Assembly (NCBI GenBank): GCA_016186945.1
Contig: JACPKR010000038.1
Location: 15,472 to 79,471 of the forward strand
Reading direction: 5' to 3'
Length of the DNA stretch: 64,000 nt
DNA from: Deltaproteobacteria bacterium
Lineage (GTDB): Bacteria; Bdellovibrionota_B; Oligoflexia; Oligoflexales; Bog-1112
Below the pieces are notes generated by a model. That model made no database searches. It was not told the origin of the DNA and saw only the letters and a program-made list of their open reading frames with translations. The position numbers and the translations under genes were made by a program. Below, one piece after another: positions 3,473-53,296 of this stretch. Position 1 is the first letter of the stretch. Each line of letters opens with the position of its first letter.

Positions 3473-4222
3473 ATGATTTCGATTATTTTTGGCATTCTCC
3501 TTCTCGTCGTCTTACTTTTCAACACGATTAAGATTCTCAACGAATATGAGCGAGCGGTTGTGTTCCGATTAGGCCGCTATACGGGAATCCGAGGGCCTGG
3601 ACTTATCATCCTTATTCCGGGTATCGAGAAGATGCGACGGGTCGACCTGCGCACAATCACAATGGACATTCCCTCTCAGGATATCATCAGTCGAGACAAC
3701 GTAACGCTCAAGGTCAACGGTGTCGTTTACTTCCGCGTCGATGTGCCTGACAAGTCTGTCATTGCGGTGGAAGACTACCTGCAAGCTACCGCGCAAATTT
3801 CTCAGACGACTCTTCGCTCCGTCATTGGCCAATTTGAGCTGGATGAAATCTTGTCGAACCGTGAATTGATCAACAGCAAGTTGCAGACCATCCTAGACGA
3901 ACAAACAGAGCCATGGGGGATCAAAGTGACGGTGGTGGAAGTCAAAGCGATTGACCTTCCCATCGAAATGCAAAGAGCCATGGCCAAGCAAGCACAGGCT
4001 GAGCGAGACAAGCGTGCGAAAGTGATTTCCGCAGAAGGAGAACTTGCCGCGTCTAAGAAGCTAGCCGAAGCCGCGGAAATTCTAGCAACACAGAAGAACG
4101 CCATCACCCTCCGCTACCTCGAAACGATGCGAGAAATTTCCATAGGCGAAGGTAAGTCGACGACCTTCTTTCCCCTTCCCGTCGACTTTCTTATGAAGGT
4201 GCTCAACCCTAAGGACGCCTAA
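3473..4222 (+). CDS. SPFH/band-7 (stomatin/slipin-like) protein
   Basis: N-terminal [14 protein letters not shown]...GPGL motif and a coiled-coil tail. Classic NfeD-stomatin operon arrangement. Confidence 0.9.
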
Positions 4223-4260
4223 CTTGTGGCAAGGAGGAGCTTTGGATTAACTTTGTTAAT

Positions 4261-4426
4261 TATAGTATTTGGGAAAAAGAATTTGTGGAGAGGACCTTTT
4301 TTGAAAAAAAGTTCCCCTCCACACCTCCCCCAAAAAACTTTAGATATTGAAGTTTTTAAAAAGGGGCTTGGGGAAAGAACTTTTTTCAAAAAGTTTTTCC
4401 CCAAATTGATTATCTTGAATACTATA
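4261..4426 (+). mobile_element. MITE-2 copy A (full length, includes flanking TA dinucleotides)
   Basis: TA|TAGTATTTGGG...GAATACTA|TA. Internal long hairpins GTGGAGAGGACCTTTTTT/AAAAAAAGTTCCCCTCCAC and GGGGAAAGAACTTTTTT/AAAAAGTTTTTCCCC. Five other copies are in the window. Confidence 0.8.
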
Positions 4427-4860
4427 GTAGAAACACTGCGCAATCTTGGATTAACAAAATCCATGCAGATTGCAGAGTAAGCGCTTTATGCCCTCTTTCA
4501 ATAAACTGTTGGATAATCTCAGGAAGGATTGCATTACTCGTAGAGAAGCATGTTACCTTTAGAAAGGCGGGCCAGAGTCATGACATGAAAAACGTTACCC
4601 ATGTTTTTGAATTTACTGACGAATAGCCTTTCCCTTTGTCGTAAGGCGTCTCGTTGCTGTTTCAAATATTCCAAACCGAGATCGGTCAGCCCTTGATAGA
4701 TCTTACCCGTCTCGGAATCAAAGATAATAAGTTCACTTATATCCGGCTTGTTTTCTCGGGCCTCTGCAAAACTCGCTTGGAAGGATAAAGCGAGGTTGCC
4801 GAATAGACAAAATTCCCTAACAGGCTAGTTTTGTTTTGTTTTGCCCGGTTTAAAGGGAAT

Positions 4861-4982
4861 GGGGCAAGGAGGTGGTTTGGAGGAAACTGCGCAGCTGGTT
4901 CCTCCAAGAAATCCGGGGGAGGCGACGCTTCCCTCGCCCCCCCAACCCCCCCTCTCCCTAGTTGCCCCAAGTGGCTTACGCG
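4861..4982 (+). mobile_element. MITE-1 copy 1 (left TIR missing)
   Basis: GGGGCAAGGAGGTGGTTTGGAGGAAACTGCGCAGCTGGTTCCTCCAAGAAATCC...CCCCAAGTGGCTTACGCG, shared with 15 other loci. Confidence 0.8.
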
Positions 4983-5064
4983 CGTGTGCCTCCGCTCATG
5001 TTTTTCGCCTAATTGCCGATAGACAGCATGGTTTCGATTTTAAGGACGGCTTAGGGGAAAAACT

Positions 5065-6081
5065 TTGCTAAGGCAGCTGCTTAAAACAATCCTAATCGGC
5101 TTTCTCCTTTCCTACACCAGCCAATGCAAAAGCGAACAAAAAGGAGGGAAACCCCAGGCTACCCCTACTGGTGCAGACGTTTCTCCCCCGGTTCCCTATG
5201 CTGGACAAAGCAGCTCACCTGAACTGCCAGCAACGGAAAAAGCAACCGACCCTTTGACGGGACGACTTACGACCACGATCGCCCAGGCGGACAGCACACC
5301 TGCGGGGGAAACACAGAAAACACAAATGACAGGCGGAGGGGCAGTCGGAGCCAATGCGAGTGACCTCTATTCCATGACACCGGCTCAGCTTAGAAAGGTC
5401 CCCGCGATCACTCTCGAACCGGAACTTATTAAGCTTCGGGAGCAAAACAAACTAGAAGAAGATCAATTGCGCAAAATCCAGGCCTTTAACGCAGCCATGT
5501 GTCAGCGAATGGAGACACTCAAGAAGCAGTGCGTTGCTCAGCACCTTCTCGTCCCTGCAACGGGTGCATCTGACCTCACCTGCACTCCGGGCGAAGAAGA
5601 GGCTGAATCCGAGATCGAAGCGGAAGTGCAGAATGCGGGGGCTTATACCTTTCGTCTTAAAGCAAACAAGGACTATATCAGCGACGAATTCGGAAGCGGA
5701 CGCACGATTATCCGTTTCTCCCGCACTGACAACCGCCTTGTAAAGGCCCCTCGCTTTCGTGAAGTAACGTCTCTGACTCTTGTGTCAGTAACACCAAACT
5801 CAAAAATCGAGCTGGGGAGGATTCAACATCCTACGGATATCAAAAACCAGGACCAGCTTTCCAGTACCATGAAGCTTCGCATCTATGTAAACGGGACACT
5901 TCTCGTCGAAAGCTCCGAGAAAGGAGCAGGATGGCTTCGACTCGCACCCAATACGAAAACGAAATCCGAGCTGCTCGTCGCTCCGGAAGATATCTTAAAG
6001 ATGGGACGTACGGAATCCTGCATGATCACCCTTGAGGAAATAAATGAAATCCGTAGACAAGCAGAAAAAGGGAGTCCCTAA
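5065..6081 (+). CDS. hypothetical lipoprotein
   Basis: TTG start. N-terminus LLKTILIGFLLSYTSQC is signal/lipobox-like, followed by a Pro/Thr-rich linker. No family recognised. Confidence 0.5.
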   Translation: MLRQLLKTILIGFLLSYTSQCKSEQKGGKPQATPTGADVSPPVPYAGQSSSPELPATEKATDPLTGRLTTTIAQADSTPAGETQKTQMTGGGAVGANASDLYSMTPAQLRKVPAITLEPELIKLREQNKLEEDQLRKIQAFNAAMCQRMETLKKQCVAQHLLVPATGASDLTCTPGEEEAESEIEAEVQNAGAYTFRLKANKDYISDEFGSGRTIIRFSRTDNRLVKAPRFREVTSLTLVSVTPNSKIELGRIQHPTDIKNQDQLSSTMKLRIYVNGTLLVESSEKGAGWLRLAPNTKTKSELLVAPEDILKMGRTESCMITLEEINEIRRQAEKGSP

Positions 6082-6082
6082 C

Positions 6083-6925
6083 ATGAGACGATGGGGAACA
6101 TCAGCCTATCATTGCAAGAATTTCCTGCTGGTCTTACTCTGCATACTTCTCTGGAACTGTGAGTCAAAGCCTCAGCCCGTCTCGAAAGGTGCAGCACGAC
6201 AAACGACAGATGATGTAGGCCAGACAGGTCAGCTCACCAAACTGGAAACGGCAAACCCTATCGTCGACGAATTTCTTTCTCTCGTCGATGCCATAGGACG
6301 TCGTCGTCCCGCTCTGGAGAGAGAAAAGGACAGGCGTGGCAAACTCATGCTCGAACTGATGGCAAATATCGGAGCAGGCTGCATGCACGACGTACGGGTG
6401 AACAACCTCGAAATCAAGATCGACGGTGACAAACTAGACGACCTCGATGTCACTCACGACAAGGCAAACGCTCAGTTCCTTCCCGAACCCGAACAAGGTA
6501 AAACCATGTTTGAATTCTCCTTCGGAGACATCAGCGAAACCAACGTCATCAGTATTCCCAACAATGAATACCAGAAACAAATGTTCAACATCGCTAGCAG
6601 CTTGACTTACAGTGTTCCCGCGGACAAGAATTTCAAGATCGGTAATATCGACTTTATTCGCATCAAAAAACGTATCCCCGTCTATCGGAAACTCGATATC
6701 GGAGGCGTTCCAAAAGTGGAAGAAGTCGAGCGCTATATGCTGAACAATCTGACGATAAAAGTGAACGGCCTTGTTCTCTACTCACAAGACGGTATCAATC
6801 ACGGTTTTTCCCTTAATCCGGGGGGCCCTGAAGATGCCCGATCAGAGGGCTTGACCTGGAAAGAAAACAACGCGCAACTTAACCAAGCCTTCGCTGCTCT
6901 CCTGCAACGCGATGAATGCCAATAG
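6083..6925 (+). CDS. hypothetical lipoprotein
   Basis: I prefer the internal ATG at 6083, directly after the upstream stop and with a GGGAG RBS. N-terminus FLLVLLCILLWNC is lipobox-like. Confidence 0.5.
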   Translation: MRRWGTSAYHCKNFLLVLLCILLWNCESKPQPVSKGAARQTTDDVGQTGQLTKLETANPIVDEFLSLVDAIGRRRPALEREKDRRGKLMLELMANIGAGCMHDVRVNNLEIKIDGDKLDDLDVTHDKANAQFLPEPEQGKTMFEFSFGDISETNVISIPNNEYQKQMFNIASSLTYSVPADKNFKIGNIDFIRIKKRIPVYRKLDIGGVPKVEEVERYMLNNLTIKVNGLVLYSQDGINHGFSLNPGGPEDARSEGLTWKENNAQLNQAFAALLQRDECQ

Positions 6926-6936
6926 CCAAAAAATGC

Positions 6937-7102
6937 TATAATTTCAAGATAATCAATTTGGGGAAAAACTTTTTGAAAAAAGTTCTTTCCCCAAACCCCT
7001 TTTTAAAAACTTCAATAGTTAAAGTTTTTTGGGGGGAGGTGTGGAGGGGAACTTTTTTTCAAAAAAGGTCCTCTCCACAAATTCTATTTCTCAAAGACTA
7101 TA
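6937..7102 (-). mobile_element. MITE-2 copy B (full length)
   Basis: Reverse complement of copy A, flanked by TA on both sides. Begins 12 nt after the stop at 6925. Confidence 0.8.
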
Positions 7103-7206
7103 TCTGACCCTCTTGACCTCGCTAAAATCATAAGTAATTTCAATTAGTTGTAAAATTTTTTCGCTTGCTCAAGTAGACAATTTTCTCTAGGATCACAGCA
7201 AGATCA

Positions 7207-9153
7207 ATGTTTCCAAATCGTTCGGTGAAGAGGGATTTTATGAATCGCTTCTTAGTGCATGCAATCTTGGCGTACCTGTTGACTGCGTCTCCCTTCTTGA
7301 TTGCCAAAACGTTTACGATCCTTCACACAAATGACTGGCAATCGCGACTGCTTGGTTTTGGGCCTAACTCAAACTACGAACCCTCTCGGATCGGGGACGG
7401 AACGGTCGGGGGGATTGCTCGCCTGGCCACGCTCCTAAAAGCAAAGCGGGAGGCTGCGGGACAAAAGGGAGCTGTGCTTGTCTTGGACGCTGGCGATTTC
7501 ACAATGGGGACCCTCTTTCATACGATCACACGAGAGACAGGTGGCGAGCTTCAACTTCTAAACCTTCTTGGTTACGACGCCGTAGCTTTAGGCAACCATG
7601 AATTTGACTTCGGCCCGCAGGGGCTGGGGGACATGATCGAGTCGGCACTGAGAGAGGCAGGCTCACTTCCCCGACTTCTTGCTTCCAACATGGTCCTCTC
7701 GGAAAACGATCCAAGCGATGCAAAGCTTCGAAAATTCGTCAAGCAAGGCATTATTACCGACCATGCCATCATCGAACGGGGCGAGATCCGATTCGGCCTT
7801 TTTGGAATCATGGGCTACGACGCGTCGGAAGTCACCGTCAGCATGGGAGCTGTCACGTTTTCTGATCCCATCGAAACGTCTCGAAAAATGGTCGCGTTGC
7901 TGAAAGAAAAAAAGGCCGACGTCATCATTGTGCTGTCCCATAGTGGGGTAACAAGAAAGGAAGACGGCTCTTGGGGAGGAGAAGACGTTGAACTCGTCAA
8001 GAAAGTGCCAGGTATTGACATCGTAATCGGTGGGCATTCCCACACGACCCTCGACAAACCGATCCTTGAAGGGAAAACGTCTATCGTTCAGGTAGGTTCT
8101 GAGGTTCAGTTTTTAGGGGAGCTAGAGATGAGGATAAATTCATCCGTCGTCTCGATGCAGAATTATGTGCTGAATGCGATCAATGATCAAATCCTTGGGG
8201 ATAACTTCATAACACAAAAAATAGAGCATTTAGCTGATCTCGTGTCCGAACTCATTCTCAAACCAATGGGGATTCGTTTCGACGAACCTATCGCTAAGAT
8301 TGAAAGTGGTGCCACGAGAGACTTCGAAGATGACGTCATCGGAAACCTCGTTGCCAGCTCCTACAAGAGAGCCACTGGCGCTGATATCGGCTTCACTCCC
8401 AACGGAGTCCTAAGAGACGATCTGCACTATGGACGCGATGGCATTCAAAACTACTCCGATATCTTCCGCATCCTTCCCCTCGGTGTAGGGGAAATCGAAG
8501 ACACTCCCGGTTATCCCCTTGTCAAGGTATGGGTAAACGGAAAAGAATTAAAAAGCATCCTGGAGGTTCTTCTCCTGGCTTACAAGGTCAAGAACGAGAG
8601 TTACTACCCCCGCTTTGCCGGGATCGAATTTGATTACAACCCCCTACGTGTCCCCTTCGACCGTGTTATGGAAGTTCGCCTGCAACAAGGCGACGGCAGC
8701 TACCTTGTCGTCGATTTGAACGACGAAAACTCGCTCTACAGTATTGCCGCAACGTCCTATGAAGGGAAGTTTTTTTGGGTGATCCCTGAAGTCAGCATGG
8801 GGCTGCTCTCGGTAACTCCCAAATTCGAAGACGGGACACCCGTGCATGACATTGGCGATGCGCTCTTCGACGCCCAACCGGACATCAAGGCAATTCAGGA
8901 ATACAAAGCATGGCGAGCCTTGCTCGACCATATTCGTAAACTTGTCCCTGATGAAAAGACGCACCTCGCCTTTATTCCTACATCGGGTGCAGCAGCCCAC
9001 ACGCCGATGATCAAGAGAACAAGCCTCGATCCGCAGGATCTCTATAAAAACGCGACCTGGATCCAATGGACGGCGACTGCTGTTTTTCTTGTCAGCCTTT
9101 CGGTGCTGATTTTCGGCTTTATCCTTCTGATCCGCTGGAAGCGTAGTCGTTAG
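7207..9153 (+). CDS. bifunctional metallophosphatase/5'-nucleotidase, C-terminally membrane anchored
   Basis: Calcineurin-like motifs HTNDWQS, DAGDF, GNHEFD, SHSG and GGHSH, plus a 5'-nucleotidase C-domain. An alternative start at 7240 is possible. Confidence 0.8.
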   Translation: MFPNRSVKRDFMNRFLVHAILAYLLTASPFLIAKTFTILHTNDWQSRLLGFGPNSNYEPSRIGDGTVGGIARLATLLKAKREAAGQKGAVLVLDAGDFTMGTLFHTITRETGGELQLLNLLGYDAVALGNHEFDFGPQGLGDMIESALREAGSLPRLLASNMVLSENDPSDAKLRKFVKQGIITDHAIIERGEIRFGLFGIMGYDASEVTVSMGAVTFSDPIETSRKMVALLKEKKADVIIVLSHSGVTRKEDGSWGGEDVELVKKVPGIDIVIGGHSHTTLDKPILEGKTSIVQVGSEVQFLGELEMRINSSVVSMQNYVLNAINDQILGDNFITQKIEHLADLVSELILKPMGIRFDEPIAKIESGATRDFEDDVIGNLVASSYKRATGADIGFTPNGVLRDDLHYGRDGIQNYSDIFRILPLGVGEIEDTPGYPLVKVWVNGKELKSILEVLLLAYKVKNESYYPRFAGIEFDYNPLRVPFDRVMEVRLQQGDGSYLVVDLNDENSLYSIAATSYEGKFFWVIPEVSMGLLSVTPKFEDGTPVHDIGDALFDAQPDIKAIQEYKAWRALLDHIRKLVPDEKTHLAFIPTSGAAAHTPMIKRTSLDPQDLYKNATWIQWTATAVFLVSLSVLIFGFILLIRWKRSR

Positions 9154-9181
9154 CTGTTTGCCCGAGTTGTTGTTGAATCAA

Positions 9182-9330
9182 TATAGTATTTGGGAAAACG
9201 AATTTGTGGAGAGGACCTTTTTTGAAAAAAAGTTCCCCTCCACACCTCCCCCCAAAAAACTTCAAATACTGAAGTTTTTGAAAAGGGGGTTGGGGAAATA
9301 ACTTTTTTCAAAAAGTTTGTCTGAAATTCT
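9182..9330 (+). mobile_element. MITE-2 copy C (right end degenerate)
   Basis: The left 140 bp match copies A and E. Similarity decays after AAAAAGTTTGTCTGAAATT. The degenerate end overlaps the kinase ORF start. Confidence 0.7.
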
Positions 9331-10625
9331 TGATCCTCAATCTCTTGTCCACCTCGCTGCTTGCTGTAACACCGGCCCATCTTATCAAGCGGGTCCATTT
9401 TCCCCCTCGCCTTTCACAGGAGGTGGCCTACACCCTTTACGATTCCGCAAGTCTGAAAGCGACTCTGGAAGAAAGGTCCGACATTCTTCAGAAAGCAAAT
9501 CGCCTTGCGAATATTCTTAGCACCAAGCTCCCGGTCCGCCGCTCTAAAATTCAATACATGGTCGCGTTTATTGAAAAAAATAGGCAAGAGCACCCTGATG
9601 TCATAGGACTTGGTTCCCTCTACATTCCCAAAAATCACGAGCTTCCTTTTTCAATTCAAGTTTATGACAATGGACACACCTACATCAACCTTGAAGAGGC
9701 TGATCCCGAGAAGAAAAAAGGAGGCTATAAATCGTTTGCCCGGGCCCTCGACTACGATAACGAAACCTTCTACGCCCAACTACGTACCGAGGTGAAAGAC
9801 TTTTACAATCTTAAAAAACAAATCCGTGAACTGGAAATCATGGATCTCCTTCGTGACAGCCCCGAAGCTTTGAACTACCGAGACACCGATATTTACGTAG
9901 TCAAAGAATTCGATGAAGCGAAACATATCCTGTCCATTCATACAGAGGTATATGACACCGATCTTCGCTCTTTCAAAGGGCAGAGGGAGGATACCGAGCA
10001 GCTTCTCACGCTTCTGAAAGGAGCAACAAAAGGTCTTCATGCCATGCATCAACACTCCGTCGTTCATCGTGACTTAAAAGCTGCTAACTACTTTTTTAGG
10101 GAACGAGCCGGGACTAGGGAAATTGTCATCGCCGACTTCGGCTTGAGTCAGAGCGCTGACGATCCTCGCTTTGGCCTTAATCTGTGCGGTACCCGTGGGT
10201 TCATGGCACCAGAATCATGTCATCGCTGGGCTTCGGACCGATCCGCCTTCAGAACTCTAGCCGAGGGGAAAGCTGCGGACGTCTTTTCCCTGGGAATGGT
10301 GTTCCGGGAACTCATCTGGGGTGATCAGGCAAGCCCCGACAGCAAAGCTCTCACCCAACTCAACTACGCAGCCCTGCCCCCGAAAACAAGTGGGAAAACG
10401 CTTGACCCTAAGGAAGTTGAAAGTCGCTTCGAGAGTTTCGTCACAGCCTATGGAGCATCCTACCCTCAAGTTGGAGACGTGAGGCCCAGGACCAAATGCC
10501 TTTTCATTCTAAACGCACTGACTTGGAAAATGTTAGACCCTCATGCCCATGACAGGCCCTCAGCTGAATATGTACTCCAGAGTCTGCAGGATCTGGATCG
10601 CACCCAGCTTTGCGCAAACTCGTGA
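9330..10625 (+). CDS. Ser/Thr protein kinase (Hanks type)
   Basis: HRDLKAANYF catalytic loop, DFGLS and GTRGFMAPE activation segment. The start is uncertain (TTG at 9330 lies inside degenerate MITE-2). Confidence 0.75.
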   Translation: MILNLLSTSLLAVTPAHLIKRVHFPPRLSQEVAYTLYDSASLKATLEERSDILQKANRLANILSTKLPVRRSKIQYMVAFIEKNRQEHPDVIGLGSLYIPKNHELPFSIQVYDNGHTYINLEEADPEKKKGGYKSFARALDYDNETFYAQLRTEVKDFYNLKKQIRELEIMDLLRDSPEALNYRDTDIYVVKEFDEAKHILSIHTEVYDTDLRSFKGQREDTEQLLTLLKGATKGLHAMHQHSVVHRDLKAANYFFRERAGTREIVIADFGLSQSADDPRFGLNLCGTRGFMAPESCHRWASDRSAFRTLAEGKAADVFSLGMVFRELIWGDQASPDSKALTQLNYAALPPKTSGKTLDPKEVESRFESFVTAYGASYPQVGDVRPRTKCLFILNALTWKMLDPHAHDRPSAEYVLQSLQDLDRTQLCANS

Positions 10626-10695
10626 GCCGCCGCAAAGCACCGCCATTGACGAAGGTCCCAGATTTCAGTACAACTTGCCCAGGATAACGCCCCCG

Positions 10696-12309
10696 ATGAG
10701 GAATACCGTGAATCTCGAACACGAAATACAACGACGCCGTACGTTTGCGATCATCTCCCACCCTGACGCCGGCAAAACGACCATTACGGAAAAATTGCTC
10801 CTTTACGGGGGAGCGATCCAGATGGCTGGGACAGTGAAAGCCAAACGCTCAAAAAAATTCGCCACTTCGGATTGGATGGAATTGGAAAAGCAGAGGGGCA
10901 TTTCCGTAACAAGTTCTGTCATGAGTTTTCCTTACGCAGACCATGCCATCAACTTGATCGACACCCCCGGTCACCAGGATTTTTCCGAAGACACGTACCG
11001 CACCCTGACAGCAGTGGATAGCGCCCTCATGTTGATTGACTGCGCTAACGGTGTGGAGACCCAGACCAAGAAGCTTTTCGAAGTCTGCGCCCTGCGTAAA
11101 ACCCCTATCATCACATTTGTTAACAAACTCGATCGACCTGGACGTGATCCGTTCTCCCTATTGGAAGAGATTGAAAATGTCCTGGGTATTGCCACGTATC
11201 CCGTCACCTGGCCCATTGGCATGGGAGATGAATTTCGTGGGGTCTACAACCGCAAGACTCGGGAATTTCTGATCTACGACAGAAATTCGGACCGATCGCG
11301 TAAGGTGCCTCTCAGGGGCCTTTCCCTTGCCGATCCTCTCGTGGATCAAGAACTCGGAGACGAACATGCAAGAGCGTTGCGTGAGGACATCGAGCTACTT
11401 GATGCTGCAGGCGACAGCTTTAAGCTCCAGGCTTACCTGGAAGGAACACTCGCACCCGTTTTTTTTGGAAGCGCGCTAAACAACTTTGGGGTGGAGCTGC
11501 TGTTGGAGAATATTGTCCATCTTGCTCCTGGACCCCAGGCGAGGGATACAGCGCAACGAACGGTTATGGCAGATGAGAAGAATTTCACCGCCTTTGTCTT
11601 CAAAATCCAAGCTAACATGGACCCCGCGCATAGAGACCGTGTGGCCTTCCTCCGCATTTGTTCTGGCAAATTTGAACGTGGCATGAAAGCCCATCATGTG
11701 CGCCTGGGCCGCTTGATGCGCCTGGGACGCCCCACACATTTCATGGCGCAGGATCGTTCCCTAGTCGATGAAGCTTTCGCAGGTGATATCGTCGGTATCC
11801 ACGACCCCGGCTTGTTTCGCATCGGAGATTCCCTGTCATGCGGAGAAACCCTTAACTTCACAGATATCCCCGTGTTTGCTCCGGAACACTTCGTGCGTGT
11901 TGAACTCGCTGACCCACTCAAATCCAAGCAACTGAGAAAGGGCCTGGATCAACTTTCAGAGGAAGGAGCTGTTCAAGTTTTCCGCCCCCTTCACTCTAAC
12001 GATCAGTACTTGGGTGTTGTGGGCCTTCTTCAAATTGATGTTGTAAAATACAGGATCAAAGCAGAATACGGCGTTGACGTGAATATGAAAGCGCTGCCCT
12101 ATACTGCCGCTCGTTGGATTTCCTCGGACGACAAGAAAGCACTCGAAACGTTCAAAATCGACCAGGCAACCCATATCGTGCTGGACTCACATGAACATCC
12201 AACGCTGCTGCTTGATCATGACTGGCGTTTGAAATTTTATCAGGAACGGCACCCTGCTATCAAGTTTTTGCAAGTTTCGGAAGCCGTTCAAACGACCTAT
12301 AGTATTTAA
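10696..12309 (+). CDS. prfC: peptide chain release factor 3
   Basis: RRRTFAIISHPDAGKTT G1 motif, DTPGHQDF and NKLD. ATG at 10696 chosen over the track's upstream extension. The last 3 codons and stop lie in the TA+MITE-2 sequence. Confidence 0.9.
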   Translation: MRNTVNLEHEIQRRRTFAIISHPDAGKTTITEKLLLYGGAIQMAGTVKAKRSKKFATSDWMELEKQRGISVTSSVMSFPYADHAINLIDTPGHQDFSEDTYRTLTAVDSALMLIDCANGVETQTKKLFEVCALRKTPIITFVNKLDRPGRDPFSLLEEIENVLGIATYPVTWPIGMGDEFRGVYNRKTREFLIYDRNSDRSRKVPLRGLSLADPLVDQELGDEHARALREDIELLDAAGDSFKLQAYLEGTLAPVFFGSALNNFGVELLLENIVHLAPGPQARDTAQRTVMADEKNFTAFVFKIQANMDPAHRDRVAFLRICSGKFERGMKAHHVRLGRLMRLGRPTHFMAQDRSLVDEAFAGDIVGIHDPGLFRIGDSLSCGETLNFTDIPVFAPEHFVRVELADPLKSKQLRKGLDQLSEEGAVQVFRPLHSNDQYLGVVGLLQIDVVKYRIKAEYGVDVNMKALPYTAARWISSDDKKALETFKIDQATHIVLDSHEHPTLLLDHDWRLKFYQERHPAIKFLQVSEAVQTTYSI

Positions 12310-12464
12310 GATAATCAATTTGGGGAAAAACTTTTTGAAAAAAGTTATTTCCCCAAGCCCCTTTTCAAAAACTTCAGTATTTAAAGTTTTTTGGGGGGAG
12401 GTGTGGAGGGGAACTTTTTTTCAAAAAAGGTACTCTCCACAAATTCTTTTTCTCAAATACTATA
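12298..12464 (-). mobile_element. MITE-2 copy D (full length)
   Basis: Fills the entire prfC-glnS spacer, flanked by TA. The glnS ATG is 14 nt beyond it. Confidence 0.8.
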
Positions 12465-12477
12465 AAATAGGAAACCC

Positions 12478-14136
12478 ATGGAAACGAAACGATCTAGCAA
12501 CTTCATTCGTCAAATCATCGACGAAGACTTACGAACAGGAAAACATAAACAAATCATCACGCGCTTTCCTCCCGAGCCAAACGGTTATCTTCATGTCGGA
12601 CATGCGAAGGCCCTATGCGTGAATTTCGGCATTGCGGAAGACTACCCAGGGGCATACTGCAACCTGCGCTTCGACGACACCAACCCCCTTAAGGAAGACT
12701 TACACTTCATCGAAGCGATCCAAGACGACATTAGCTGGATGGGCTTCCAGTGGCACGGGGATATCAAATATGCGTCAGCCTATTTTGATAAACTTCACGA
12801 CTATGCTGTACAATTGATAAAAATGGGCAAAGCTTACGTCTGCCGTTTAAGCACGGACGAGATGAAGACCTATAGAGGAACACTTACAGAACCTGGAAAA
12901 GAAAGTCCCGACAGAAATCGTTCTATCGAAGAAAACCTTGCCATGTTCGAGAAAATGCGGGATGGCGTTTACGACGAAGGTTCCTACACTCTACGCGCTA
13001 AAATCGACATGAATTCCGGTAACGTCAACATGCGTGACCCTGTGATCTATAGAATCCTCAAGGCTACCCACCCGATGCTTGGAAATAAGTGGGTCATCTA
13101 CCCCATGTACGACTACACCCACTGCCTGTCCGACTCGCTCGAATATATCACCCACAGCCTTTGCACTCTTGAATTTCAAGATCATCGGCCGCTTTACGAC
13201 TGGTTTATTGACACACTTCGTTGCGAGAGTCATCCACAGCAGATCGAATTTGCTCGCTTGAACGTCAACTATACGGTCACCAGCAAACGAAAGCTACGTG
13301 CTCTCGTAGAAAATAAACTCGTCGATGCTTGGGATGATCCCCGAATGCCAACGCTGAAAGGAATGCGCCGACGAGGTTACACCCCATCTGCTATTAAAGA
13401 TTTCTGTGAGCGCGTCGGTGTGACCAAAAAAGAAACGACGATCGACATAAGCCTTCTTGAAGAGTGCGTCCGGGAAGATCTCAACAAAAATGCCCTACGC
13501 GCTTTCTGTGTTCTCGATCCCTTGAAACTTGTGATTGAAAATTATCCTCAAGGAAAAAAAGAGCAAGTTTCCGCCCCCAATCATCCGCAGAATCCAGACA
13601 TGGGATCCAGACCCCTGCCGTTCTCTCGAGACATCTACATCGAGCGAGATGACTTCGCAGAAGTCCCCCCGAAGGGCTATTTCCGCCTTTCCCCTGGTCA
13701 GGAAGTCCGTCTCCGTTACGCCTACATCATCCGATGTGAGAAAGTGGTGAAAGACGCCTCAGGTAAAGTCACCGAACTGCGCTGTAGCTACGACCCCGAC
13801 ACCTTGGGGAAAAACCCCGTCGGACGCAAAGTCAAAGGCGTCATCCACTGGGTAAGCGCTGCCGACGCTGTGCCCGCTGTTGTCCGCCTCTACGACCGCC
13901 TGTTTACAGTCCCCGACCCTACGGAAAAAGAAAAGGACGGCATTCCCTACACAGATTTTTTCAACCCCCACTCCTTGGAAAGGCGCGACCACGCCATCGT
14001 TGAAGCGAGTTTGAGAAACGCTGCTCCCGAAACGCACTTCCAATTCGAACGACTGGGCTACTTCACCGTAGACCGGGATTCACGAGATAAACCTCTGACT
14101 TTCAACCGCACGGTGTCACTAAGAGAGACTCGGTAG
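12478..14136 (+). CDS. glnS: glutaminyl-tRNA synthetase
   Basis: Class I HIGH motif (PNGYLHVGH), VTSKRKL (KMSKS-like) and a typical GlnRS C-terminal anticodon-binding region. Confidence 0.95.
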
Positions 14137-14186
14137 GGGCAAGACTCTTAGTTTTTCCTCACAGTCATTTCTGTATAGACACCCTT

Positions 14187-14325
14187 GTAACCCGTAAGCT
14201 GTTTGTGGCAAAAAGGGAGAGGGGGGTTTGGGGGGGCGAGTGAAGCGTCGCCTCCCCCGGATTCCTTGGAGGAACCAGCTGCGCAGTTTCCTCCAAACCA
14301 CCTCCTTGCCTTAAGCGGCCTATGC
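14187..14325 (-). mobile_element. MITE-1 copy 2 (full length, degenerate TIRs)
   Basis: GTAACCCGTAAGC...GGGAGAGGGGGGTTTGGGGGGGCGAG...TTGGAGGAACCAGCTGCGCAGTTTCCTCCAAACCACCTCCTTGCC... Confidence 0.8.
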
Positions 14326-14339
14326 ACCTGGGGCGGCCT

Positions 14340-18005: not shown

Positions 18006-18040
18006 AAGTCATCCTTTCATCAAAGCCTCTTTAAAGCCTT

Positions 18041-18087
18041 GCAAGGAGGTGGTTTGGAGGAAACTGCGCAGCTGGTTCCTCCAAGAA
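18041..18087 (+). mobile_element. MITE-1 copy 3 (core hairpin only)
   Basis: GCAAGGAGGTGGTTTGGAGGAAACTGCGCAGCTGGTTCCTCCAAGAA in the divergent promoter region. Confidence 0.8.
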
Positions 18088-18173
18088 TACGGTTTTTTTA
18101 AATTATCTCTAGACTTTCACATTTTTACAAGATATTAATTTGATTAAGAAATCAAATACAACAAAGGTTCTCT

Positions 18174-19694
18174 ATGCATGACGATGTTCGTTGCCGAAGT
18201 TTGTGGCTCGCTCTGACTCCTATGTTGTTTCTTGTCACATTGTTAGCTTTCAATCTCAAACTTTACGGTGACGGAGCAGCCGCTGGCCCTAACCAGGTTG
18301 CCCTTCTTTTGTCTGCTATGTTTGCAACATGCGTTGGTGTTTTTGCCTTGGGCATTCCCTATAAAAACATTGAGTCTGCCATCCTTGAATCTACAAGTCA
18401 TATTTTGCAGGCTATTCTCATCCTGTTGGTGGTGGGAGCTTTGATCAGCCTTTGGATACTGAGTGGAATCGTTCCGACTCTGATTTATTATGGCTTGAAG
18501 CTTCTCTCTTCCTCGATTTTTCTTCCCGTATCATGTGTCATTTGTACGATTGTCTCGCTTGCGACTGGTTCCAGTTGGTCGACCGCGGGAACGGTTGGAG
18601 TCGCCTTGATTGCAGTGGGCAAGGCACTTGGAATTCCCGAAGGCCTGGTCGCAGGTGCCATCATTTCCGGAGCATATTTTGGGGACAAGATGTCTCCTCT
18701 TTCCGACACAACCAACATGGCTTCTGCTATGGCCGGCGTCGATCTTTTTGACCACGTCAGACATATGCTTTACACAACCGTTCCTGCTTACACATTGGCT
18801 ATTCTGGGGTTTGTAATCACCGGGTTCTTCGTCACTCCCGCAGGGGGGGCGGACGGGAACATAACGGAAGTCCTTGGCGTCATCACTCAGAATTTCAACG
18901 TCGGACCACAGCATTTGTTTGTTCCGCTCCTGGTCTTGTTTCTCATAAGAAGGAAGATAGCTGCTTTACCTGCTTTGGCTGTAGGCTGCGTGCTCGCAGT
19001 TCCGTCAGCACTTCTATTTCAGCAACAATTTTTGCATCAAACTTTAGGAGAATCTTACGATGGCGCCAGTGTGTTCAAAATGATTATAAGCACAGCTGCC
19101 AACGGCTTCTCCAGCAAGACGGGATCGAGCTTGGTCGACGGCCTTCTCTCACAGGGGGGAATTTCGAAGATGCTAAGCACGCTTTGGCTCTTGATATCAG
19201 CGATGGTGTTCGGGGGAGCTCTGGAAGGATCGGGCATGTTGGCGCGTATTTCCCAAGCTTTGCTCAGCAGTGTCAGGAAAACGGTGAGCCTGATCGGAGC
19301 AACCCTGGCCAGCTGCCTTTTTGTCAACATGACTGTCGGTGACCAGTACCTTGCCATTGTCCTACCGGGCCGCATGTTTCGTTCGATCTATGCACGATAT
19401 AAACTCGATGCGCGCAATTTATCCCGCGCTCTCGAAGATGCCGGGACGGTTACGTCTGTGCTCGTGCCTTGGAACTCGTGCGGAGCCTACCATGCTGCCA
19501 CTCTGGGAGTGGCGACCTTGACGTACTTGCCGTTCTGCTTTTTCAACATTGCTAGCCCCTTGGTTTCGTTCGCTCTTGCTGCCCTTGGTTGGACAATCCT
19601 GAAGAGTTCAGAGAGCCAAGAAGAACAGAAATCGGATGCGATTTCCATTCCGGACCAAAAAAGGGTATCGTCATTTAGTGAACGTAATGCGTAA
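18174..19694 (+). CDS. nhaC: Na+/H+ antiporter NhaC family
   Basis: About 12 predicted TM segments and NhaC-type conserved blocks (GSSWSTAGT, GAYFGDKMSPLSDTT). The last 3 codons plus TAA lie in the MITE-1 TIR. Confidence 0.8.
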   Translation: MHDDVRCRSLWLALTPMLFLVTLLAFNLKLYGDGAAAGPNQVALLLSAMFATCVGVFALGIPYKNIESAILESTSHILQAILILLVVGALISLWILSGIVPTLIYYGLKLLSSSIFLPVSCVICTIVSLATGSSWSTAGTVGVALIAVGKALGIPEGLVAGAIISGAYFGDKMSPLSDTTNMASAMAGVDLFDHVRHMLYTTVPAYTLAILGFVITGFFVTPAGGADGNITEVLGVITQNFNVGPQHLFVPLLVLFLIRRKIAALPALAVGCVLAVPSALLFQQQFLHQTLGESYDGASVFKMIISTAANGFSSKTGSSLVDGLLSQGGISKMLSTLWLLISAMVFGGALEGSGMLARISQALLSSVRKTVSLIGATLASCLFVNMTVGDQYLAIVLPGRMFRSIYARYKLDARNLSRALEDAGTVTSVLVPWNSCGAYHAATLGVATLTYLPFCFFNIASPLVSFALAALGWTILKSSESQEEQKSDAISIPDQKRVSSFSERNA

Positions 19695-19764
19695 CCCGCT
19701 TTTGGCAAGGAGGTGGTTTGGAGGAACGCTGCGCAGCTGGTTCCTCCAAGAATTCCCTTGGGGC
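19684..19764 (+). mobile_element. MITE-1 copy 4 (left TIR plus core, right half missing)
   Basis: GTAATGCGTAACCCGCTTTTGGCAAGGAGGTGGTTTGGAGGAACGCTGCGCAGCTGGTTCCTCCAAGAATTCCC. Confidence 0.8.
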
Positions 19765-19796: not shown

Positions 19797-20885
19797 ATGT
19801 CGTATCTCAGGTATTTTTTGGCTCCCCTACTTGCTTGGTTTGCAATCATCGGCGTCTTGATGGGTGGACACTGGCTGTGGCTAGGGCTGGTGATAGCTTT
19901 TGGTGTGATGATGGGAGGTGACTCTCTTTTAGGCCAAGACGCTTCCAAACTACATTTTAATCATCCATGGATTCTGCAAATACCACTTTACTCTGCGTTA
20001 CCCGTTCTCACTTTGCTCTTGCTCTCCTTCGCTTGGGCAACGGGGACGGGGGAAAGCGATTTCCTTAGCCTCGGGGCAAACTTGCAGAGACTTTTCGCCT
20101 ATGACTTCCTTGCTGCGCGTGCGGAAAACAGTGCTTGGGATTTTGTCGGTGGGGTTTTAGGTGTAGGCCTCGTCGTGGTCGGTTGGGGAGTCAACGTAGG
20201 CCATGAATTGACTCACAGAGTCAAATCGACTGTTGCCATGTTATGTGGTCGCTTCCTGCTGTCGATGGCTGGTATTGCCGACTTTGCTATTGAGCATGTT
20301 TATGGCCACCATGCTTTTGTGGGAACCCCTCGCGATCCAGCAACGGCAAGGAGGGGTGAGAACGTTTATGCCTTTGTAGTCCGCTCTTCGATTTTCGGAC
20401 ATATCAGCGCATGGAAACATGAACTCAAGCGTCTGCGTCGGAAAGAACAGAATATCTTTTCCCACCACAACTGGATGTTGAGAGGGTATCTTCTGACCGT
20501 ACCTTGGCTTATCATGTTCTTTCTGGCTGGATCCTGGTTCGGGGTCCTGCTTTTTGTAGCGCAGGCTGCGTTTGCAAAATTCATCCTCGAAATTGTCAAC
20601 TACATCGAACATTACGGGATTGTGAGGAAAGCGTCCGAGCCAATCAAACCGCAACATTCCTGGAACACGAACCATCGCATGAGCGCCATGATTTTATTCT
20701 CCCTGAACAGGCACTCTGCTCATCATGAAAAAATGGAGCTTCCCTATTGGGTGCTCGAGCCCTACCCAGACGCTCCTCAATTGCCCTATGGATACCTTAA
20801 CGCGATCATCGTTTCTCTAATCCCTCCGCTGTGGTTTCGAGTGATGGATAAAAAAATTCAGGAATGGGAAGCAAAGTACGCCTGA
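19797..20885 (+). CDS. alkB: alkane 1-monooxygenase / membrane fatty-acid desaturase family
   Basis: His boxes HELTHR, EHVYGHH, NYIEHYG and LNRHSAHH. ATG at 19797 has a GGAGGAAGAG RBS. The track ORF extends upstream through MITE-1. Confidence 0.7.
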   Translation: MSYLRYFLAPLLAWFAIIGVLMGGHWLWLGLVIAFGVMMGGDSLLGQDASKLHFNHPWILQIPLYSALPVLTLLLLSFAWATGTGESDFLSLGANLQRLFAYDFLAARAENSAWDFVGGVLGVGLVVVGWGVNVGHELTHRVKSTVAMLCGRFLLSMAGIADFAIEHVYGHHAFVGTPRDPATARRGENVYAFVVRSSIFGHISAWKHELKRLRRKEQNIFSHHNWMLRGYLLTVPWLIMFFLAGSWFGVLLFVAQAAFAKFILEIVNYIEHYGIVRKASEPIKPQHSWNTNHRMSAMILFSLNRHSAHHEKMELPYWVLEPYPDAPQLPYGYLNAIIVSLIPPLWFRVMDKKIQEWEAKYA

Positions 20886-20887
20886 TG

Positions 20888-20924
20888 CTTGGGGGGCAAG
20901 GAGGTGGTTTGGAGGAAACATTAC
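20888..20924 (+). mobile_element. MITE-1 copy 5 (mini derivative: left arm joined to the ATTAC tip)
   Basis: CTTGGGGGGCAAGGAGGTGGTTTGGAGGAAAC+ATTAC. The folP stop codon (20921-20923) lies in the tip. Confidence 0.6.
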
Positions 20925-21859: not shown

Positions 21860-21891
21860 AAACTCAGGCTACCATAAACGGTCTGGTCCTG

Positions 21892-22024
21892 ACTTGGGGC
21901 AAATAGGGAGAGGGGGGTTTGGGGGGGCGAGGGAAGCGTCGCCTCCCCCAAGGGATTTCTTGGAGGAACCAGCTGCGCAGTTTCCTCCAAACCACCTCCT
22001 TGCCCCAAGTGGCTTACGCATTAC
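21892..22024 (-). mobile_element. MITE-1 copy 6 (near full length)
   Basis: ACTTGGGGCAAATAGGGAGAGGGGGGTTTGGGGGGGCGAGGGAAGCGTCGCCTCCCCCAAGGGATTTCTTGGAGGAACCAGCTGCGCAGTTTCCTCCAAACCACCTCCTTGCCCCAAGTGGCTTACGCATTAC. Confidence 0.85.
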
Positions 22025-22038
22025 CTTGGAGAAACTTC

Positions 22039-22746
22039 TTGGTCGACACAATAGAAATAAAGAAAAACTATCTCAAAACAGTCCTCTTTGGTCTTGGATT
22101 TTTTGCCCTTCTTGCTTGCGGGGACGACGCTAGTGCAGACAATTTTGGTTTAATCTCCCGACTTACGGACCACGCCTTTGCGGGCGAATATGCTAACGAC
22201 CCCGCCTTTGATTCTGCTCAACAGGCTTTTTCCCCTCTATCGGCTATAGATCATCAGGGAGGCAAAACGCTCGCGAGTCTTACAAAAAAACAAATTCGTC
22301 GCAACCGCCCGCAAGGCAAATGCCTTCGTTGGGTTCGTATCGCTCTTACGAAATACAAATGGCAACGTGAACAGGATAAACGAAAAAGCAAACGCACGTT
22401 CAGTTTCCACTCCCTTCCCCGCGATTCCCACCCCTTCGCTAAAAACATATTGTCCCCTGGCCGATCAGCCGCCGACTTCATGGGCTGGGCTCTTCAGAAT
22501 CCGGCTTCTCTATGCACCGAGTTGGGATTGGCAAATATTACGGATTTGCCTTACCACACGACTTTTGATGGTATGGTTTTCGTTTACGGGCGTGGCAAAT
22601 GTGGCTTTCACAGAAGGTGGGGGCATATTGAAGTCGTTACGAACGCCGAAAAAAAAGAAGTTTGCTCCGATCACTGTCGTAAACTTCAACCTGATTGCAA
22701 GCCCGATATCGTTCTGGCGCCTGTAACACACTGTGGCTGGCTATAG
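22039..22746 (+). CDS. lipoprotein, possible CHAP/NlpC-P60-like Cys-His hydrolase
   Basis: In-frame TTG at 22039 gives a lipobox (LFGLGFFALLAC). GKCLRWVRIAL (Cys) and RRWGHIEVV (His) follow the order of papain-like amidases. The TAG stop is the first 3 nt of MITE-2 copy E. Confidence 0.4.
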   Translation: MVDTIEIKKNYLKTVLFGLGFFALLACGDDASADNFGLISRLTDHAFAGEYANDPAFDSAQQAFSPLSAIDHQGGKTLASLTKKQIRRNRPQGKCLRWVRIALTKYKWQREQDKRKSKRTFSFHSLPRDSHPFAKNILSPGRSAADFMGWALQNPASLCTELGLANITDLPYHTTFDGMVFVYGRGKCGFHRRWGHIEVVTNAEKKEVCSDHCRKLQPDCKPDIVLAPVTHCGWL

Positions 22747-22908
22747 TATTTGAGAAAAAGAATTTGTGGAGAGTACCTTTTTTGAAAAAAAGTTCCCCTC
22801 CACGCCTCCCCCCAAAAAACTTTAGATATTGAAGTTTTTGAAAAGGGGTTTGGGGAAATAACTTTTTTCAAAAAGTTTTTCCCAAAATTGATTATCTTGA
22901 ATACTATA
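22742..22908 (+). mobile_element. MITE-2 copy E (full length)
   Basis: TA|TAGTATTTGAG...GAATACTA|TA, about 95% identical to copy A by eye. Confidence 0.8.
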
Positions 22909-23759: not shown

Positions 23760-24814
23760 AGAACATTTTTTATGGTTTCACCTTTGTTTGTGTTCTGCTT
23801 GCGACACCCAACTGTGTTGCAGGAGTCTCCTCGCGTGGAGTTTCCTCAGAAAAAGTATACAGGATTGCGTTTGGTTCCTGTGTTCATCAGGACAAGGAAC
23901 AGCCTGTGTGGGAGGCAGTTTTAAAAGATCATCCAGACCTATTCATCTTTCTTGGCGACAATATTTACGGCGATACGGAAGACATGAAAGTTTTACAGGA
24001 GAAATATGACAAGCAAAACAGCAAGCCTGGCCTTTCAGAACTTCGCAAGCAAACAAGAGTGATCGGTACCTGGGACGATCACGATTATGGCGTGAACGAT
24101 GGAGGAGCAGAGTATCCGAAGAAGGAGGAATCACGGCAAATCATGTTGAACTTCTTCGAAGAGCCTGGAGATTCTCCCCGAAGGACTCAAGACGGTGGAG
24201 TATACGCCTCCTACATGTTTGGAGAAGGTAGCGAGGCTATTCGCGTCATTTTACTGGACACTCGCTGGGCACGCAGTCCTCTGATAAAGGTTCCAGAAGA
24301 AGAGCTTGAGGATCGCGATAACCGGAACATGGGGCCATACGTAGCCAATGAGGCTCCTGAGGCACGGATGCTCAGCGAAACGCAATGGACCTGGCTGGAA
24401 AAACAGTTCGAAGGTGAAGCTTCCCTCACGATCATTGGTTCCAGTATTCAATTCCTCTCGGATTTCACAGGATGGGAAAGTTGGGCTAATTTCCCACCGG
24501 AAAAGGAACGACTCTTAGCCGTTCTCAAGAAGCATCCAGAAACCAGGGTGATGTTCATCAGTGGGGACATGCACTATGCAGAAGTCAGCAAATGGGATGG
24601 AATTCTTCCTTACCCTTTGTGGGATTTCACTTCGAGTGGGCTGACTCAGAGCTGGCATAATGTTTCACCTAATCTTTTTAGAGTGGGTAAGTCATTTCTT
24701 GAAGCCAACTATGGTCTGATGGAGTTTCAATTCGATCCGGTACCAAGACTTCGATTTCAGATCAAAAACGTGTTTGGAACGGTCTTGCAAAGTACGGATC
24801 TGGTTTTGCGGTAA
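23750..24814 (+). CDS. PhoD-like metallophosphatase (alkaline phosphatase D family), secreted
   Basis: Signal peptide, then FGSC..QD, FLGDNIYGD, WDDHDYG.ND and SGDMHYAE motifs. Confidence 0.75.
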   Translation: MYLKNIFYGFTFVCVLLATPNCVAGVSSRGVSSEKVYRIAFGSCVHQDKEQPVWEAVLKDHPDLFIFLGDNIYGDTEDMKVLQEKYDKQNSKPGLSELRKQTRVIGTWDDHDYGVNDGGAEYPKKEESRQIMLNFFEEPGDSPRRTQDGGVYASYMFGEGSEAIRVILLDTRWARSPLIKVPEEELEDRDNRNMGPYVANEAPEARMLSETQWTWLEKQFEGEASLTIIGSSIQFLSDFTGWESWANFPPEKERLLAVLKKHPETRVMFISGDMHYAEVSKWDGILPYPLWDFTSSGLTQSWHNVSPNLFRVGKSFLEANYGLMEFQFDPVPRLRFQIKNVFGTVLQSTDLVLR

Positions 24815-24937
24815 CAAGGGGATTTCTTGGAGGAACCAGCTGCGCAGTTTCCTCCAAACCACCTCCTTGCCACAAGAGGAACCAGCTGCGCAGTTTCCTC
24901 CAAACCACCTCCTTGCCACAAGCGGGTTGCGTATTAC
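24815..24937 (-). mobile_element. MITE-1 copy 7 (core duplicated in tandem, right TIR)
   Basis: Two successive GGAACCAGCTGCGCAGTTTCCTCCAAACCACCTCCTTGCCACAAG units, then CGGGTTGCGTATTAC. Fills the whole spacer between convergent stops. Confidence 0.8.
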
Positions 24938-30445: not shown

Positions 30446-30519
30446 TCAACGATTTCTACTTATATGAATAACTTGATAAGCAGGCGAGAAGCAACCGGAA
30501 ATTAGCTACGTCAAAATCG

Positions 30520-30640
30520 CGTAGGACACTTGGGGCAAATAGGGAGAGGGGGGTTGGGGGGGCGAGTGAAGCGTCGCCTCCCCCGGATTTCTTGGAGGAA
30601 CCAGCTGCGCAGTTTCCTCCAAACCACATCAATGCATTAC
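30520..30640 (-). mobile_element. MITE-1 copy 8 (internally deleted), flanked by a 14-bp direct repeat
   Basis: CGTAGGACACTTGGGGCAAATAGGGAG...CCTCCAAACCACATCAATGCATTAC. CTACGTCAAAATCG occurs at 30506-30519 and 30641-30654. Confidence 0.75.
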
Positions 30641-36748: not shown

Positions 36749-36810
36749 ACATCACACTCCACGAAAAATTGTTTTTGAAATTTGGAATTGATTATAGGGA
36801 AAAAAATCGT

Positions 36811-36863
36811 TTGGGGCAAGGAGGAGGTTTGGAGGAAACTGCGCAGCTGGTTCCTCCAAGAAA
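36811..36863 (+). mobile_element. MITE-1 copy 9 (core only)
   Basis: TTGGGGCAAGGAGGAGGTTTGGAGGAAACTGCGCAGCTGGTTCCTCCAAGAAA. Confidence 0.8.
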
Positions 36864-45652: not shown

Positions 45653-45675
45653 TTCCTTGACTTTGCATCAGCCCT

Positions 45676-53284: not shown

Positions 53285-53296
53285 GTTTGTCCCCCA

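Follow-up and report, generated by a model that had tools for sequence, protein, structure and literature searches.

What is the 166-bp sequence at positions 4261-4426 of the window (the whole 64,000-nucleotide stretch analysed here), which recurs along the window and lies, wherever it recurs, at the end of a gene? The preliminary description named it MITE-2, placed it at six loci and took it for a transposon-derived repeat with strong hairpins. A scan of the 64-kb window recovers six copies of one repeat at those loci, namely four intact copies, one with a decayed right end and one right half. The intact copies are 166-167 bp long, with a core of 162-163 bp, and a TA dinucleotide flanks each intact end. 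The copies are as follows.

4261-4426, plus strand: copy 1 of the candidate MITE (166 bp), intact; TA at 4261-4262, core at 4263-4424, TA at 4425-4426
6937-7102, minus strand: copy 2, intact, both termini slightly mutated; target ATAG in element orientation
9182-9348, plus strand: copy 3, full length; right terminal inverted repeat (TIR) decayed over the last ~35 nt
12298-12464, minus strand: copy 4, intact; lies over the prfC stop codon and ends 13 nt before the glnS ATG
22742-22908, plus strand: copy 5, intact; in a CTAG in the 3' end of a conserved 275-aa ORF (21919-22746)
43951-44033, plus strand: copy 6, right half only, 83 bp

Two boundaries differ from those first proposed. Copy 3 had been thought to end near 9330; it runs at full length to 9348 and is decayed, not truncated, over its last stretch. 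For the half copy, the start is closer to 43951 than to the 43944 first given.

Pairwise identity among the four intact copies is 94.0-96.4%, and copy 3 is 87-89% identical to them. Copy 6 is 94-98% identical to the corresponding right half in each of the four intact copies and 80.5% identical to that in the decayed copy 3. Flanking sequences are unrelated between the six copies, and both orientations are present. The repeat is real and far above chance, which we confirmed by counting its parts across the window: the 18-mer of hairpin 1 has 10 matches (five copies, both arms) against 0.11 expected by chance, the 25-nt left end has five matches and the right end four against none expected, and TATAGTATT occurs seven times against 0.05 expected. 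All copies that were detected fall within 40 kb of the window. Exact searches with the core patterns GGGGAAAKAACTTTTTTCAAAAAGTTT and GAAAAAAAGTTCCCCTCCAC returned no match in GTDB genomes, JGI metagenomes or IMG/VR, collections that do not include the source genome. The element has no capacity to encode a transposase, and the ORFs that cross a copy are spurious frames of 81-84 aa only. The G+C content of the window is ~48%, and other short repeats are abundant in the same genome. Judged by RF3 and further proteins, the window comes from an uncultured bacterium of Oligoflexales/Bdellovibrionota-like affinity.

The ends of the element carry most of the information about its origin. Intact ends read TATAGTATT...AATACTATA, with nine perfect terminal bases followed by an imperfect inverted repeat that extends to ~28 nt. 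The TIRs are thus imperfect and ~26 nt long (25-28 nt), with the sequences TAGTATTTGAGAAAAAGAATTTGTGG and TAGTATTCAAGATAATCAATTTGGGG. The canonical left end is TATAGTATTTGAGAAAAAGAATTTG, as in copies 4 and 5, from which copy 1 differs at one base. All intact ends had been described as TAGTATT-type; this holds for most of them and fails for copy 2, in which both termini are mutated, one to TATAGTCTT by a point mutation and the other by a 1-nt deletion. Within copy 1, the parts are arranged as follows.

4263-4288, plus strand: left TIR, TAGTATTTGGGAAAAAGAATTTGTGG, the presumed transposase-binding end
4285-4322, plus strand: hairpin 1, GTGGAGAGGACCTTTTTT-GA-AAAAAAGTTCCCCTCCAC, 16 of 18 positions paired
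4328-4366, plus strand: central hairpin, CCCCAAAAAACTT...AAGTTTTTAAAAAGGGG
4370-4402, plus strand: hairpin 3, GGGGAAAGAACTTTTTT-C-AAAAAGTTTTTCCCC
4399-4424, minus strand: right TIR, reverse complement TAGTATTCAAGATAATCAATTTGGGG

Both the sequence and its folding bear out the two long hairpins and the central pairing that were first reported. As RNA, the element is predicted to fold at -51 to -52 kcal/mol (z -5.5 to -6.5), and as DNA at -28.5 kcal/mol (z -5.3). The element as a whole is an imperfect palindrome, in that the right half, read as its reverse complement, can be aligned with the entire left half, and it can be drawn in two alternative folds, either a terminal stem with three hairpins or an end-to-end rod. 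Most simply, the internal hairpins are a by-product of this palindromic build.

A mobile element of this kind would need a transposase. As the preliminary description had it, none was found in the window: transposase domains were absent from the 46 distinct window ORFs that were scanned, a set that comprises all but a few large ORFs. Neither a full-length IS with these ends nor any further TIR-like end was detected in the 64 kb. The frameshifted ORF at 44071-44460 (minus strand), which lies beside the half copy, was considered as a transposase and discarded, as it has no Pfam match and is unlike a transposase. We therefore looked outside the window, scanning GTDB genomes with a degenerate consensus of both MITE ends. 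The matches were mostly chance single-copy loci, plus repeated elements. The ~25 matches in Streptococcus represent one orthologous single-copy locus with a common flank, and those in SAR86 and some others are likewise single loci; both sets were set aside as chance matches.

Among the repeated elements is an IS of ~1.62 kb in the MAG JAYVPO01 (L014/L027), with the ends TATAGTATTCAAGAAAAGTAATTTGG and TATAGGCTTTAAGAAAAAGAATTTGGG; the latter matches the left end of the MITE though it lies outside the search pattern. Its transposase (357 aa) carries DDE_3 (3e-30) together with HTH_33, HTH_32 and HTH_23 domains and a YSPDYNPIEKLW motif, and this predicted domain layout is the IS630-family architecture. 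The protein has thousands of homologues, which, where named, are called 'IS630 family transposase' (NCBI). A second IS end, in a Thermodesulfobacteriota MAG (L046), is identical to the left end of the MITE in the form of copies 4 and 5 at 24 of 25 positions and adjoins the C-terminus of an IS630-type transposase, again with YSPDYNPIEKLW. An IS630-family transposase with TAGTATT-type termini, which had been proposed as the thing to search for, thus exists in other bacteria.

These ends belong to a larger group. When the surroundings of 80 related metagenomic transposase genes were searched without bias for inverted repeats, ~50 of them proved to have ends of the form (C)TATAG-NNN-TT-(C/A)AGAAAAAG-ATTTTGG. 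Among these IS, the base before the left TA is C in 41 of 49 and the base after the right TA is G in 34 of 48; as this analysis was conditioned on TATAG, its informative parts are the flank counts and positions 6-28 alone. The flanks of the clade thus read C-TA-[IS]-TA-G, that is, a CTAG target with TA duplication. A preference of IS630 for CTAG is credited to Tenzen and Ohtsubo (1991), as cited in PMC2170065. The same end type and CTAG flanks occur in a cultured organism, in an IS on a plasmid of Acaryochloris marina S15 (WP_212662243.1). Against the consensus TIR of the clade, the MITE ends agree at 19-22 of 28 positions, and the left TIR of copy 1 agrees at 21-22 of 28 when the flanking TA is counted. 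The intact MITE copies lie in the targets TTAG, ATAG, TTAG and CTAG (in copy 1 the context is T-TA/TA-G), so that all four are of the form nTAG but only one of the four is a full CTAG. None of the IS examined has sequence in common with the core of the MITE.

Insertion at TA with duplication of the TA had been suggested by the preliminary description, which proposed a comparison with empty sites. Three relatives (L002, L003 and L004, the last from GCA_964611335.1) keep the gene order 5'-nucleotidase-prfC-glnS, and their RF3 proteins are 91%, ~81% and ~81% identical to that of the window, respectively. The gap between prfC and glnS is 12-13 bp in all three versus 168 bp in the window. The insertion point of copy 4 is the TA of what was originally the stop codon of prfC (ACC-TAA), and the window prfC ends ...AVQTT-Y-S-I-stop, the element supplying the last three codons (Y-S-I) and the TAA. 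Out of three deletion models at this site, removal of the core plus one TA is the only one that restores a colinear RF3 C-terminus. It yields ...FLQVSEAVQTT*, a C-terminus exactly as long as that of the nearest homologue (...FLQVSEAVQNT*), with the stop positioned as in L002 (ACC TAA vs ACT TGA). Deletion of the entire TATAG...CTATA makes RF3 longer by one residue, and deletion of the core alone, with both TAs retained, lets prfC read through into glnS.

A second, independent site is that of copy 5, where the terminal TAG of the element serves as the stop codon of the 275-aa ORF and ~20 ancestral C-terminal codons are lost. In L004, the homologues of this ORF and of the menaquinone gene that follows it are 19 bp apart. 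When the core and one TA are deleted from the window sequence, the frame continues as ...HCGWLAQTSVK..., to be compared with ...HCESLANNDNK... in L004 (conserved "LA"); the model without duplication gives an unrelated continuation. In addition, the spacer that holds copy 2 measures 281 bp versus 100 and 85 bp in relatives, an excess of about the length of the element. Both independent sites are consistent with a 2-bp TA duplication, with the empty sites being those of different species and not of conspecific strains, and the duplication read from the restored reading frames together with the rule of the family. That rule has a biochemical basis, as the flanking TA of the IS630 family was shown to be target and not element (PMC2170065). 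Duplications of 3 bp (TAG or TAA) and of 5 bp (TATAG) were also considered and rejected, as they leave the left and right repeats out of register. The proposed comparison with empty sites thus came out in favour of TA duplication, at two orthologous sites.

We conclude that the six repeats are very probably copies of one non-autonomous transposon of the IS630/Tc1-mariner type, that is, a MITE. The element is small, within the range of about 50-400 bp that is usual for MITEs, lacks a transposase, bears TIRs and is dispersed (six copies in one window), all of which are generic features of prokaryotic MITEs, and the target-site duplication by which MITEs are also recognised is found in the comparison of filled with empty sites, at two orthologous positions in other species. 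Insertion at TA with duplication, and TIRs homologous to those of IS630-family IS, are the features of an IS630/Tc1-mariner-derived element in particular. The type assignment first made for the repeat is therefore upheld by TIR homology, by the empty sites and by nTAG targets at all four intact copies. Given that its ends match those of IS630-family IS in other bacteria, it is a real but ordinary mobile element.

We envisage its mobility as follows. The core cannot encode a transposase and carries the imperfect TIRs of ~26 nt; an IS630-family transposase (N-terminal HTH domains plus a catalytic DDE_3 domain) would be supplied in trans by an intact, full-length IS of this clade that has ends of the same kind. 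The HTH domains of this enzyme would bind the ~26-nt TIRs, and the element would be excised by cut-and-paste and reinserted at a TA, preferably within nTAG or CTAG, with duplication of the TA. Only insertions in short spacers or in the last codons of genes would then have survived selection. What we infer here is that the element is mobilised in trans, that it is active at present, that the same genome has a partner IS and that selection has caused the positional bias. Copy 3 is probably immobile because its right TIR has decayed.

The positional bias itself is plain. The preliminary description counted five of the six copies near or over a stop codon, and this holds for all six, which lie within 40 nt of a stop codon (11-38 nt) or, in the case of copies 4 and 5, overlap one. 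Copy 1 lies 38 nt 3' of the stop of an HflK/C-like gene (3473-4222). Copy 2 lies 11 nt 3' of the stop of ORF 6044-6925 and 104 nt 5' of the 5'-nucleotidase gene, and copy 3 lies 28 nt 3' of the stop of the latter, adjoining an extra kinase-like gene that the relatives do not have. Copy 5 is 56 nt 5' of the VitK2_biosynth (menaquinone) gene, which starts at 22965, and copy 6 is 37 nt from the stop of the frameshifted minus-strand ORF. The supply of target sites was examined as a cause and rejected: ORFs make up ~89% of the window, and both nTAG and TA are about as dense within ORFs as they are elsewhere. As target availability does not produce the bias, purifying selection is its simplest cause. 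In one reading frame the terminus TA/TAG TAT T(T/C)(G/A)A provides a stop codon immediately, as at the 275-aa ORF, and in a second frame it does so at the fourth codon, as at prfC; with a stop thus soon reached in two of the three frames, these two insertions would have been tolerable.

A TA flank alone does not separate IS630 from IS5-type or Harbinger-like families. Another transposase could therefore have moved this MITE, one of the IS5-family ISL2, IS427 or IS1031 groups or a PIF/Harbinger-like enzyme, with the likeness of the TIRs a coincidence, and it would fit with such an origin that no partner IS was found in the window. We consider it very improbable, as both ends match IS630-clade TIRs over 25-28 nt, one of them outside the search pattern, the nTAG flanks are in keeping with the CTAG preference of the IS630 type, and a 3-bp duplication of TAG or TAA puts the repeats out of register. 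More radically, the repeat may not be a transposon at all and instead be REP/BIME-like and dependent on a RAYT, or have been spread by recombination-driven duplication, or represent a family of small RNA genes. Its palindromic build and intergenic setting, the wealth of other short repeats in the genome and the lack of a transposase nearby are all in keeping with this. What makes it most improbable is that the TIRs are homologous to IS ends, that TA stands at the copies and the flanks are unrelated, and that two of the insertions interrupt the 3' ends of coding sequences. Rfam gives no match either, and there is no RAYT/Y1 or other transposase domain among the ORFs that were scanned. Where PMC3733652 describes them, REP/BIME are palindromes of 20-40 nt with a GTAG/CGTC head, associated with RAYT and without target-site duplication; the element, by comparison, has 166 bp, three hairpins, TIRs and TA flanks, which is not the architecture of a 20-40 nt REP.

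A different matter is whether the core of the MITE has since been co-opted, as a 3'-end stabiliser, as an RNase III/E processing site or as a weak bidirectional terminator. This would add to the origin as an IS630-type MITE, not replace it, and would explain why copies persist beside stop codons. On either strand the predicted fold is very stable, all copies lie no more than 40 nt from a stop codon or over one, and a U-rich stretch (AAAUUCUUUUUCUC or AAAUUGAUUAUCUU) follows the last hairpin in each orientation. Roles of this kind have been documented or proposed for the Correia, ERIC/YPAL and SPRITE elements (PMC2229807; PMC10969869), which lend the idea support by analogy. We nevertheless regard co-option as unlikely. 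The orientation of the element relative to the upstream gene alternates (+, -, +, -, +), one pair of hairpin 1 is lost to a G-to-T variant for which the other arm does not compensate, the copies are too alike to show covariation, and purifying selection alone would account for the positional bias. A terminator scan of positions 4000-13000 gave no call inside any of the copies there, and an Rfam scan of the entire window gave no match at gathering thresholds; both a known structured RNA and an intrinsic terminator, the latter defined as a GC-rich stem that runs straight into a U-tract, were rejected on these results. The arrangement at copy 4 bears on termination as well. With a prfC-glnS gap of 12-13 bp, the relatives have no room for a glnS promoter, so transcription must cross copy 4, which argues against strong termination there. 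Overall, nothing supports a role as terminator. It is also doubtful, at the lower end of what we would entertain for co-option, that the element acts as a portable gene-end module, its ends bringing a fresh stop codon and its three hairpins a structured 3' UTR (a stabiliser, processing site or insulator) to each landing site, and that it has been retained for that reason at the ends of conserved genes, namely prfC, the 5'-nucleotidase gene and the 275-aa ORF.

How does the IS630-type MITE of the window compare with described systems? It had been likened to the Correia and RUP types; the resemblance in kind stands, and membership of either family does not. The ends of Correia elements also begin TATAGT. 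These elements (Correia/NEMIS/CREE) are found in Neisseria and have 104-157 bp, long TIRs, 5'-TA-3' termini and a TA duplication; they form stable hairpins and are often co-transcribed with their neighbours (PMC2229807, PMC3184786). They are like the window MITE in size, TA ends and hairpin, a likeness of kind that was compared by description only. They are unlike it in being a genus-specific family with a TIR sequence of its own (~24-26 bp), an IHF site and promoters and no known cognate transposase, whereas the window MITE shows no evidence of promoters or of an IHF site.

RUP of S. pneumoniae is a non-coding element of 107 bp whose TIRs are like those of IS630-Spn1; it goes into TA sites and duplicates the TA, occurs mostly between genes and adopts a stable fold (PMC2229807). 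IS630-type TIRs, TA insertion, intergenic position and stable fold are all shared with the window MITE, for which we propose the same mechanism. However, the two have no sequence relationship, differ in length (107 vs 166 bp) and live in hosts of different phyla, and the partner IS of RUP is in the same genome whereas the IS matching the window MITE are in other bacteria only. Membership of RUP was rejected because the length is 166 and not 107 bp; the Streptococcus matches of the TIR scan are a single-copy locus and not RUP. In this last respect, Nezha of Anabaena/Nostoc is closer, as it has TIRs and direct repeats in common with ISNpu3, which is absent from its host, and the case for its mobility was made by comparing orthologous sites with and without the element (PMC3184786). 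The matching IS is thus in another species only, as for the window MITE, and the same logic applies with the same limitation; sequence and host are unrelated. The full-length IS of the clade resemble the MITE in TIR type and TA flanks and, as far as its nTAG sites go, in the CTAG-like target; they are its autonomous relatives, and their transposases would recognise its ends. They differ in their length of 1.2-1.6 kb and in encoding a DDE_3/HTH transposase, and none of them comes from the source genome.

A sibling of the window MITE is a MITE of ~130 bp in the Desulfobacterales MAG AC2.63 (L009, positions 2061-2193; L016, positions 1348-1477). Its TIR is identical at 27 of 28 positions to the right end of the window MITE (the T variant, as in copy 4), and its termini have the same form, TATAG...CTATA. 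It is shorter, lives in a host of another phylum and has an unrelated core (GGGGTTCCG...GGGGTGAGGAACGAA...). The same TIR on unrelated cores suggests repeated, independent births of MITEs from one IS630 clade.

The copies have left their mark on the genome and on its assembly. The gene annotation is altered, as prfC gains three codons and a new stop and the 275-aa protein loses ~20 residues, and operon spacers have been widened from ~12-19 bp to 170-220 bp. A Logan contig recovered from five samples (L001) equals window positions 7073-9209 exactly, reaching 30 nt into copy 2 on one side and 28 nt into copy 3 on the other; it ends there because repeats break short-read assemblies. The copies leave the current understanding of MITEs unchanged. 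What they add is a previously undescribed MITE family in the IS630/Tc1-mariner group, from a barely studied lineage (uncultured Oligoflexales/Bdellovibrionota), and with it the documentation of a widespread IS630 clade with TA/TAG...AGAAAAAG ends and CTAG targets. This clade appears to have given rise on at least two occasions, and in different phyla, to MITEs whose cores are unrelated.

A second interspersed repeat family is present in the window in more copies than the 166-bp MITE (>15, full or partial), and it is probably the element called MITE-1 in the preliminary description. Its core, GGCAAGGAGGTGGTTTGGAGGAAACTGCGCAGCTGGTTCCTCC, is a hairpin, and longer forms of ~150 bp carry an extra G-rich block, GGGAGAGGGGGGTTTGGGGGGGCGAG, together with GTAATGCGTAAGCCAC-like ends. 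Copies use both strands and usually lie at gene ends. These copies and further features of the window are as follows.

4840-4986, 14184-14330, 18017-18088, 19681-19753, 20872-20917: second repeat family
21875-22024, 24783-24937, 30511-30639, 36792-36863, 41287-41358: second repeat family
44472-44643, 45654-45725, 56450-56598, 60735-60806, 61607-61761: second repeat family
49233-49454: tandem array, 45-nt unit, 4.9 copies, 96% matches
52940-53285: tandem array, 22-nt unit GCGGGATGACAGACTCAAAAAA, 16 copies, 96% matches
44071-44460, minus strand: small ORF broken by a frameshift or stop
9330-10625: Ser/Thr protein-kinase-like ORF (Pkinase, 3.7e-21)

The 45-nt unit of the first tandem array derives from the 5' part of the second repeat family (ATGCGTAAGCCACGCGGGGCAAGGAGGTGGTTTGGAGGAAACGTA). 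In the second array, which is flanked by two minus-strand ORFs, 21- and 22-nt unit variants alternate.

Two ORFs lie next to MITE copies. The interrupted ORF, whose product reads ...LKALIRVSPMTTKAWIGGIANFMGANKR / LGDIAGVEKKLL...NWKALEQANVREFLRKK*, had no match in a Pfam search; it lies between the MITE half copy on one side and a copy of the second repeat family on the other, and is probably a pseudogene within a repeat-rich patch. The kinase-like ORF is placed between the 5'-nucleotidase gene and prfC and directly adjoins MITE copy 3 at its right end, which has decayed. This ORF is not present at the syntenic loci of two relatives (L003 and L004), where the gap between the 5'-nucleotidase gene and prfC is 50-153 bp.

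The tetranucleotide CTAG is strongly depleted in the whole window, with 84 occurrences observed vs about 250 expected by base composition; a second-order model predicts 104. The two GCGATCGC sites (0.85 expected) are not above chance. We also observed a weak σ-70-like match (TTCAAA-17-GATAAT, 9/12) at 12287-12315, with its -35 hexamer within the 3' end of prfC and its -10 hexamer within the MITE terminal repeat. This candidate promoter would be directed through MITE copy 4 towards glnS. The GATAAT hexamer is present in every MITE right end.

Related elements were found in other bacteria. A MITE of ~130 bp with TATAG...CTATA ends occurs in the Desulfobacterales bacterium AC2.63 MAG (L009, 2061-2193; L016, 1348-1477). 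While its terminal inverted repeat and the window element's right end are identical at 27 of 28 positions, the two cores are unrelated, that of AC2.63 being GC-rich. Some insertion sequences of the IS630 clade with MITE-like ends (at L014, L065, L071, and L086) are about 1.6 kb rather than about 1.2 kb in length. In the MAG JAYVPO01 (L014, 2947-4569), the additional stretch contains a DUF3024 ORF (8e-9), antisense to the transposase and within the inverted repeats, which could be a passenger gene.
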